DNA of 9,153 bases from a virus. The position numbers were made by a program, and so were the translations under genes. The notes under the pieces were generated by a model. That model saw nothing but the letters and a program-made list of their open reading frames with translations, did no database searches and was not told the DNA's origin. The stretch is from the UHGV virus genome UHGV-0035315. One strand, given 5' to 3'. Position 1 is the first letter of the stretch; each line of letters opens with the position of its first letter. Shown piece after piece: positions 595-731 of the stretch.

Positions 595-658
595 CAAAAT
601 TTACCTCTATGTCCTTTCAATAGAAGGTGATTATTCCATTTTTTTTACACCCGCATAG

Positions 659-709
659 CGCATGCGTATTTACAATACGTGTTAAATGTGATTATGATGC
701 ACGCATGCG
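659..709. promoter_or_regulatory. Inverted repeat pair CGCATGCGT (659-667) / ACGCATGCG (701-709) bracketing a promoter; candidate operator sites
   Basis: Each contains the perfect 8-bp palindrome CGCATGCG (659-666 and 702-709), centres about 43 bp apart, lying in the divergent intergenic region between the RHH gene and the Rep operon. Confidence 0.5.
669..698 (+). promoter_or_regulatory. Candidate sigma70 promoter for the plus-strand operon
   Basis: -35 TTTACA (669-674), 18-bp spacer, -10 TATGAT (693-698), about 34 bp upstream of the ATG at 732. Confidence 0.45.
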
Positions 710-731
710 GTAAATATATTGCGGTGCAAAC

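Follow-up and report, generated by a model that had tools for sequence, protein, structure and literature searches.

We analysed a 9,153-nt stretch of viral DNA, genome UHGV-0035315 (hereafter the window), which judged by its gene content is a complete filamentous (inovirus) prophage, and find that its positions 372-775 probably form an immunity (lysogeny-control) cassette homologous to the rstR/ig-2 module of the cholera toxin phage CTXphi. In this cassette a 70-aa regulator, predicted to be a ribbon-helix-helix (RHH) protein, would act on GCATGC boxes to silence the promoter of the replication genes. This reading draws on sequence conservation, on the linkage of the boxes to the regulator, on the mosaicism of related prophages, on homology to RstR and on the predicted RHH-type fold; that the regulator binds the boxes and represses is inferred, as are its stoichiometry, both start sites and any cooperation between two sites.

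Palindromic boxes flank a candidate promoter ahead of the replication genes

The regulator gene and orf81, which opens the rightward operon, are separated by a spacer of 137 nt (595-731). The cassette and the elements of its control region are as follows.

372-775: exchangeable immunity cassette (regulator gene, control region and first orf81 codons), delimited by identity in unrelated backbones
382-594, minus strand: 70-aa RstR-like regulator, predicted RHH protein and probable repressor; start most likely ATG 594
630-638, minus strand: candidate extended -10 (TGgAATAAT) of the regulator's own promoter, whose -35 region would overlap the left box
652-658: extra box, degenerate (CGCATAG), immediately upstream of the left box
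659-667: left repeat copy, CGCATGCGT
659-666: putative left operator box, the palindrome CGCATGCG, ending two bases before the -35 hexamer
667-674, plus strand: TATTTACA, containing the -35 TTTACA (669-674)
675-682: third-box position, nCATGC in most relatives and degenerate here (ATACGTGT)
693-698, plus strand: -10 TATGAT of the rightward promoter, with an 18-nt spacer from the -35
701-709: right repeat copy, ACGCATGCG, the reverse complement of CGCATGCGT
702-709: putative right operator box, CGCATGCG, 3 nt past the -10, which should cover a start at about A705
710-717: conserved block GTAAATAT, inverted partner of TATTTAC (667-673)
732-977, plus strand: orf81, opening gene of the rightward operon, an open reading frame (ORF) of no known family
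979-2979, plus strand: replication endonuclease of the P2 GPA family (Pfam PF05840, E 5.9e-49), the main gene expected under control

An earlier note on this DNA had located both repeat copies, the -35 and the -10, and all of these coordinates are correct as read directly from the sequence. It had placed the intergenic region at 598-731; the spacer is real, and its bounds move to 595-731 with ATG 594 as the likely start of the regulator. The same note called the copies inverted, and the pair indeed exists, as a repeat search returned an inverted pair at 656-667/701-712 (12 nt, 92% complementary, 33 nt between the arms). The search also returned the octamer CGCATGCG as a direct repeat (659-666/702-709, 43 nt start to start), and because this octamer is itself a palindrome, inverted and direct are indistinguishable. 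The ninth base alone (T667/A701) makes the pair inverted, and E. coli cassettes nearly identical to this one, L001, L044, L045 and L052, have G there (L numbers are our labels for loci).

Exact copies of CGCATGCG number two in the 9,153 nt, both in the spacer, and two of the four GCATGC in the window fall within a 134-nt stretch (Poisson ~5e-4, by our own arithmetic). The promoter scan matched TTTACA-18-TATGAT to the sigma-70 consensus at 10 of 12 positions. Taken from the window alone, the box pattern is suggestive, only modestly non-random and not decisive; it is because other loci were compared that the repeats and the promoter become convincing.

As a promoter for the regulator's own gene we propose the extended -10 at 638-630, which is our reading of the sequence and lies outside the top three minus-strand candidates of the window scan. 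A minus-strand -10 stands at the same offset (-32 from T667) in L016, L006, L007 and L010, and we treat this leftward promoter as a positional candidate with a predicted start at about 623 (alternatively about 706). The minus-strand promoter that the scan itself proposed (-35 740-735, -10 718-713) was rejected for the regulator: its -35 falls in non-conserved coding sequence, it would oppose the rightward promoter head-on, and the right box would lie at its own start. It is retained as a possibility solely to explain the conserved GTAAATAT block, which may belong to the right site or serve as a minus-strand -10.

The control region is conserved beside the regulator in nine lineages

Close homologues of the 70-aa protein (60-99% identity), in which R-x-DTTVRINE is invariant, occur in Escherichia, Salmonella, Gilliamella, Providencia, Xenorhabdus, Arsenophonus and Photorhabdus, and in every context that we fetched the regulator gene points away from a neighbouring inovirus replication operon. 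The layout of the spacer, with the consensus (C)GCATGCG-TATTTACA-N17/18-TAtnAT-N3-(C/T)GCATG-nn-GTAAATA, is kept beside regulator homologues in nine lineages including Escherichia, Salmonella, Xenorhabdus, Arsenophonus, Photorhabdus, Gilliamella and V. cholerae, and is also seen in V. anguillarum and in metagenomic contigs; the flanks are unconserved. Aligning the nine lineages on TATTTACA as anchor (a MAFFT alignment was also made) gave the following information content, in bits per position.

Left box: 1.72
TATTTACA (-35): 2.0, invariant in all nine lineages
CATGC element right after the -35: 1.2
-10: 1.52
Right box: 1.42
GTAAATAT: 1.47
Flanks and remaining spacer: 0.54-0.74

GCATGCG is invariant at the left box in eight of the nine lineages, YGCATG is kept at the right-box offset in the aligned lineages (CGCATA in V. 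cholerae), and GTAAATAT is present in all lineages except V. cholerae (8/9). The 43-bp spacing of the boxes is conserved (42 bp in one lineage), as is the offset of the -10, which lies at +26 from the anchor throughout. A simple weight-matrix scan of the plus strand ranked this -35/-10 pair, at an unchanged offset, first among the candidates in 7/9 lineages and second in 2/9, in keeping with the earlier proposal of a sigma70 promoter at this place, and the proposal that operator-like boxes flank it gains from the fact that they hold their position while the surrounding sequence diverges. At the extra-box position (652-658) Salmonella has TGCATGC and V. cholerae CGCATGCA, and many relatives have a third CATGC box after the -35; by these comparisons the conserved sites are larger and more numerous than two 9-mers. 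The 15-mer GCATGCGTATTTACA matched 35 viral contigs, 11 of them adjoining the regulator, and is not diagnostic alone, the other matches being at about the chance level estimated for a collection of this size. Differences among otherwise identical E. coli cassettes concentrate at 676-681 (ATACGTG, ACACGTG, ACACGCA, ACACACA and ACGCGCA) and at 701 (A/G), and this polymorphism may reflect operator tuning or an unconstrained patch.

These comparisons bear on two other explanations of the repeat. That it has no function, being a chance repeat carried by recent common descent of the cassette, would agree with shuffles of the window alone (p about 0.01-0.05) and with a promoter match at chance level, but is hardly credible when regulators 44-80% identical keep the boxes next to spacer sequence near background information, and when the octamer recurs as perfect tandems in different spacer contexts. 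It is also very unlikely that the inverted repeat serves as a hairpin in single-stranded DNA, for instance as an f1-type minus-strand origin or a packaging signal. The host phage is a filamentous phage with single-stranded DNA, and plus strand 645-725 does fold with the boxes paired (-17.3 kcal/mol, z = -2.6, 1/200 shuffles as good), but the minus strand is unremarkable (z = -1.45), and the stem would have 5-9 bp with a 33-nt loop. Compensatory changes were found at 0/15 pairs, 5-6 of 8 lineages have the two outermost pairs disrupted, and the remaining variation is one-sided, giving G-T pairs, which are weak in DNA. That the left box stays CGCATGCG as the right one drifts indicates that sequence is kept rather than pairing; moreover, distant relatives have tandem instead of inverted boxes, and positions 64-157 form a nested hairpin region, with dif-like arms, that is far stronger.

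The cassette is exchanged between phage backbones

Positions 372-775 are ~98% identical (blastn) in E24377A-type prophages (98-99% over 372-765 by megablast), which otherwise share with the window just the attachment-region ends. About 23 E. coli genomes, E24377A for example, have the cassette at about 98-99% identity in an otherwise unrelated backbone, and L001 likewise represents the cassette in an unrelated backbone. In L003 it is the backbone that is kept, with 94-96% identity to the window on both sides of a replaced segment (457-743, breakpoints 456/744) that covers the N-terminal two-thirds of the regulator and the entire spacer. The L003 regulator is a 38%-identical paralogue whose spacer has CATCATG/CATGAGG repeats and no GCATGC. 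Breakpoint 456 lies inside the regulator gene, of which the last ~25 codons are common to L003 with the last 10 residues identical (..EELKKKKAM), and the N-terminal strand, helix A and spacer were swapped together between the window and L003. A third configuration is found in L002, where window 623-977 is replaced and a second regulator has TGTTAAC boxes, with an 8-bp period, on both sides of its promoter. This locus (E. coli E100341) has two regulator-family genes in tandem, at 9046-9255 and 9330-9512: the GCATGC-type regulator (93% identity to that of the window) no longer has a spacer of its own and follows the TGTTAAC-box paralogue on its downstream side, possibly a double-immunity arrangement.

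The cassette also precedes three unrelated replication-protein families, namely GPA (window), Rep_trans (E. coli E24377A, Photorhabdus, Salmonella and one metagenomic contig) and Phage_CRI/G2P (Gilliamella and others). (A profile scan of genome contigs yielded 3 loci; contexts came from exact-protein look-ups.) Regulator and spacer are swapped jointly between conserved or unrelated backbones, so far as sequence comparison can tell the boxes travel with the regulator and not with the replication protein or the phage backbone, and the mosaic is the pattern expected of a heteroimmunity module. The earlier nomination of the adjoining regulator as the binder of the boxes is strengthened by this co-travel.

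The same pattern speaks to the proposal that what recognises the boxes is not the adjoining small protein but the initiator, at its origin or nick site, or else a host factor such as one of the RovA/SlyA type. Filamentous-phage intergenic regions often hold origins, and RovA binds the putative promoter region of the replication gene YPO2274 in the Yersinia phage YpfPhi (PMC4266046). We nevertheless consider this proposal highly improbable. The same boxes stand ahead of the GPA, Rep_trans and Phage_CRI initiators, and sister prophages with the same GPA initiator (95% identical DNA) are without the boxes and have other palindromes together with another regulator allele; the mosaic and the linkage pattern therefore rule out a replication-origin role. 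A host factor, in turn, would neither change with the phage regulator allele nor be common to Vibrio through Gilliamella.

Box sequence changes along with the predicted DNA-reading strand

Searched with the family profile, a set of 1.84 billion representative proteins yielded 78 clusters of 50-100-aa proteins. The regulator family is constant in its second helix (LIDNY) and varies most in its N-terminal strand, and strands and boxes pair up as follows.

DTTVRINE (window regulator and close homologues): GCATGC boxes
DTSVRVNE / DTSVRINE (L057 and L059, 44-46% identical): GCATGC boxes
YGSLRVSE (L058): TGTACA
KAIAITES (L002, second regulator): TGTTAAC
KSYNVPNE (L003): CATCATG / CATGAGG

Beside the 44-46% identical regulators of L057 and L059, GCATGCTT-GCATGCGG lies over the -35, and L059 has a perfect tandem CGCATGCG-CGCATGCG with an 8-bp period downstream of the -10. 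Across the loci compared, the box sequence changes along with the predicted DNA-reading strand. Because of the strand-to-box pairs in L057, L059, L058, L002 and L003, the octamer CGCATGCG can be taken as the recurring unit of one specificity group.

The regulator is homologous to environmental RstR and is predicted to be an RHH protein

A tblastn search against annotated phages aligned residues 6-61 of the 70-aa protein at 68-70% identity (E about 1e-17) with annotated RstR proteins of V. cholerae CTXphi strain IB1346 ('environmental RstR'), of pre-CTX and of V. anguillarum VAI1/VAI2 (GQ466608, GQ466611, GU942563, KR063268 and VAI1/2), with database names that agree; the IB1346 protein is annotated as 'environmental RstR; cryptic phage CTXphi transcriptional repressor'. 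The V. cholerae rstR-rstA spacer reads CGCATGCA-CGCATGCG-TATTTACA-GCATGC...TATTAT-gcg-CGCATAC, and that of VAI2 is equivalent. The earlier note had offered rstR-rstA control in CTXphi as an analogy; with 68-70% identity and the same boxes in the Vibrio spacers, the resemblance is best described as homology, and the inoviruses of E. coli, Salmonella and symbionts appear tied to the CTXphi immunity system by common ancestry.

Published lux assays in E. coli cover eight rstR alleles, the short alleles calc (180 bp), 5 (204 bp) and 6 (192 bp) among them; every one represses the ig-2 promoter that belongs to it and needs no further Vibrio factor (Li et al. 2024, PMC11509585). Allele-specific repression is shown for eight other alleles and is proposed for that of the window by analogy with them. 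The V. cholerae homologue was considered as a candidate for rstR-6, whose primers indicate a similar 3' end and a strand-like N-terminus, and this was ruled out by the primer sequences.

Two annotations of family members deserve mention. In L055 (V. cholerae CTXphi IB1346) the deposited 86-aa rstR frame (2429-2689) begins inside the left operator box; a 64-aa form (start 2495), also in databases, fits the family length, and the 86-aa annotation is probably an over-extension. In L056 (phage If1, NC_001954) the 'major intergenic region' holds at 1471-1674 an intact, unannotated family member of 63-67 aa (MATPKRTTMAIVAERKLKLERLAIDASHTAGRAITWTDIVNHLIDNYAKD...), beside which a 147-aa ORF (962-1405) resembles by eye an IS200-type transposase.

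Searches of Pfam and of PDB sequences, with the single protein and with a profile of its close homologues, returned nothing significant, and no curated RHH family of Pfam was matched at threshold. Below threshold, ParG was matched by 8/73 relatives and in PDB at E 0.41, and hhalign aligned the family profile to ParG with a probability of 79%; the alignment covers the strand and both helices, A and B, and has an insertion of six residues in the loop (the helix-2 segment of the ParG sequence used matches that in the 1p94 alignment). AlphaFold, given 80 diverse sequences, returned a model with pLDDT 93, an extended N-terminus and helices at 16-33 and 39-69, superseding a model from 20 close homologues (pLDDT 67) whose Foldseek matches were meaningless. 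The confident model matches RHH proteins only, and its predicted order of an N-terminal strand and two helices over ~45-50 residues is that of solved RHH domains. The model and the ParG profile alignment support the description of the 70-aa protein as RHH-like, a label the earlier note had already given it. In the literature that we searched, no paper links any RstR to an RHH fold.

A model for repression of the replication promoter

We propose that RHH dimers of the 70-aa protein would recognise the palindrome GCATGC, in the full unit CGCATGCG. The left box and its degenerate neighbour (652-658) lie just upstream of the rightward -35, and the right box, 3 nt past the -10, lies over the probable start at ~A705, such that occupied boxes would exclude RNA polymerase from the promoter of orf81, the GPA endonuclease and the downstream genes. 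Under such repression the prophage would stay silent, and phages with the same cassette would meet an immune cell. The spacing of 43 bp, about four helical turns, would fit cooperation between boxes on the same face. With the left box at about -40 of the candidate leftward promoter, the regulator probably also controls its own gene, with either sign.

This last geometry is the basis for thinking that the protein binds the boxes mainly as an activator or a switch from about -42, like lambda cI at PRM, and would switch on either its own promoter or that of the replication genes. The centre of the left box (662.5) is ~42 bp upstream of the inferred rightward start (~705) and ~40 bp upstream of the inferred leftward one, and distances of about -40/-42 are typical of activators contacting RNA polymerase. 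The second box, however, lies over the start site, a repressing position, the cassette behaves as a heteroimmunity module, and all eight tested RstR alleles lower their own ig-2 promoter (PMC11509585). We judge a mainly activating role unlikely, with leftward autoactivation alongside rightward repression a possible combination.

Several observations weigh against repression through GCATGC boxes as the explanation of the cassette. Relative to both divergent promoters the centre of the left box falls near -42, a position from which activation is also possible, and at the right box several genera have the degenerate form TGCATGGT and V. cholerae has CGCATACA. In the window, the promoter scan found 2 sites/1200 nt against 2.1 expected by chance, and dinucleotide shuffles of the 134-nt spacer contained a perfect inverted repeat of at least 9 nt in 5% of cases and a repeated 8-bp palindrome in 1%. 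The GTAAATAT block and the TATTTACA/TGTAAATA symmetry are unexplained by a simple GCATGC box. The RHH assignment comes from a monomer model, in which no strand is formed, and from sub-threshold sequence matches, and the V. cholerae allele closest to the window protein is outside the eight tested (PMC11509585). Finally, a search of 595-731 for a LexA box (CTGT-N8-ACAG, at most 1 mismatch) found none, and without one no induction route is evident.

Relation to known repressors

As in CTXphi, pre-CTXphi and RS1 (RstR/ig-2/P_rstA), a small repressor gene is divergent from a replication gene across a short spacer with promoter and operators, the module is allele-variable and exchangeable, with heteroimmunity as the outcome, and the phages integrate at dif without an integrase. 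Nearest is the 'environmental' RstR of IB1346 and pre-CTX, with 68% identity and the spacer layout GCATGCG-TATTTACA...TATTAT...CGCATA. El Tor RstR, in contrast, is a helix-turn-helix protein of 112 aa, which occupies three operators in tetrameric form at a promoter shared with LexA; the window protein has 70 aa, a predicted RHH fold and 8-bp palindromic boxes. The window also differs from CTXphi-ET in having no LexA box, which is a feature of El Tor and not a strict definition of the family, and from CTXphi in its host, E. coli, and in the controlled initiator, a P2 GPA-type endonuclease rather than RstA.

MetJ, an RHH repressor of E. coli, recognises the 8-bp palindrome AGACGTCT. The window has an 8-bp palindromic unit too (CGCATGCG), its relatives show tandems with the 8-bp period of met boxes (as in V. 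cholerae CGCATGCA-CGCATGCG), and one RHH dimer per box with dimer-dimer cooperation would be the expected mode here. Unlike MetJ, the regulator has no known co-repressor, the two proteins have no sequence relationship, and the two good boxes of the window are 43 bp apart instead of adjacent, the neighbour of the left box being degenerate and at a 7-bp period. Omega (pSM19035), ParG (TP228) and Arc/Mnt (P22) resemble the window system in their small size and in arrays of 6-8-bp units overlapping promoters, and the profile match to ParG extends across the whole RHH domain; Arc and Mnt are precedents for RHH proteins in phage immunity control. Against this stand Pfam matches that are all under threshold with no significant sequence similarity, an inter-helix loop six residues longer than that of ParG followed by a long C-terminal helix, and the 7-bp non-palindromic heptads of Omega. 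YpfPhi of Yersinia pestis and CUS-1 of E. coli, likened here by description, are dif-integrated enterobacterial inoviruses with an RstR-homologue gene, YPO2273, at the same position, a protein called 'homologous to RstR' whose role 'awaits experimental demonstration' (PMC4266046).

Prophage setting

The window is a dif-integrated filamentous prophage of E. coli, and related E. coli prophages lie in a tandem arrangement adjoining hipBA, a neighbourhood that we take to be the dif region. Reading rightward, orf81 and the GPA endonuclease are followed by a G5P-like protein (a weak match under the Pfam cut-off), an ORF placed as the coat gene, a Gly/Ser-rich adsorption protein, a pVI-like protein, Zot and a secretin, with the coat, adsorption and pVI-like assignments made by ORF placement. 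The small regulator gene is divergent from the replication gene and lies at the prophage end, by a dif-type attachment region. There, nested inverted repeats at 64-76/145-157 (GTGCGCATAA-type) resemble the XerC arm of dif and inner arms at 84-97/130-143 (TTATGTT) the XerD arm, with a perfect GC-rich hairpin at 94-107/119-132 inside, such that 64-157 looks like a CTXphi-style forked-hairpin attachment site made from two inverted dif-like sites.

Downstream of the regulator the window has one further small gene.

163-318, minus strand: hydrophobic 51-aa ORF, identified as an ORF alone, with no family match

Its region is conserved, L002 aligning over window 1-326 and L003 over 1-456, and it is possibly co-transcribed with the regulator. 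Right behind this promoter, E. coli, Salmonella, Photorhabdus and one metagenomic contig again have the N-terminus of orf81 (M..IVYYDY/IIYFDY); Xenorhabdus, Arsenophonus, Gilliamella and Vibrio lack it, and there the initiator comes next.

Two repeats lie further along the operon. Between the zot and secretin genes a 339-bp unit is present in ~2.2 tandem copies (98% identical; 7043-7777), and the L002 alignment, which stops at 7099 and restarts at 7721, apparently contains about one copy. The pIII-like adsorption protein (4062-5456) has a long run of near-perfect GSGGSSGSGGSGSGS repeats at ~4700-5000, a tandem DNA repeat that gives rise to long spurious ORFs in other frames; L002 and L003 are unaligned to the window over 4493-4937/5000, and the copy number of this repeat may differ. 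The whole window had no match in the phage collection by megablast, and an Rfam search of it returned nothing.

Implications

The 70-aa protein, annotated 'hypothetical' and found on at least 1000 E. coli contigs, gains a testable function, an operator prediction (CGCATGCG at 659-666 and 702-709) and a promoter. The system is an uncharacterised relative of the known immunity switch of cholera toxin phages and not a new kind, and current understanding is not overturned. Part of what is called RstR appears to be RHH rather than helix-turn-helix, a second structural class that would matter for reading rstR allele typing and heteroimmunity in cholera epidemiology.

A wider proposition, which we hold as possible and somewhat doubtful, is that the small RstR alleles form one RHH family apart from helix-turn-helix RstR, that strand and 6-8-bp palindromes diversify together, and that the D-T-T/S-V-R-I/V-N-E strand with CGCATGCG marks a single cross-genus immunity group. 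As part of the same tentative proposition, this group, with strand and box almost unaltered, would span E. coli (E24377A and other enterotoxigenic strains among them), Salmonella, symbionts of insects and nematodes, and the 'environmental' CTXphi/pre-CTX/RS1 of V. cholerae. If so, silencing could cross the genus boundary, a resident E. coli prophage acting on a Vibrio element that enters the cell or the reverse, and the strand-to-box pairs (GCATGC, GTTAAC, TGTACA and CATGAT/G) would be the start of a recognition code. Found beside three replication-protein families, the cassette offers a compact natural set of repressors and operators and could help predict which filamentous prophages exclude each other.

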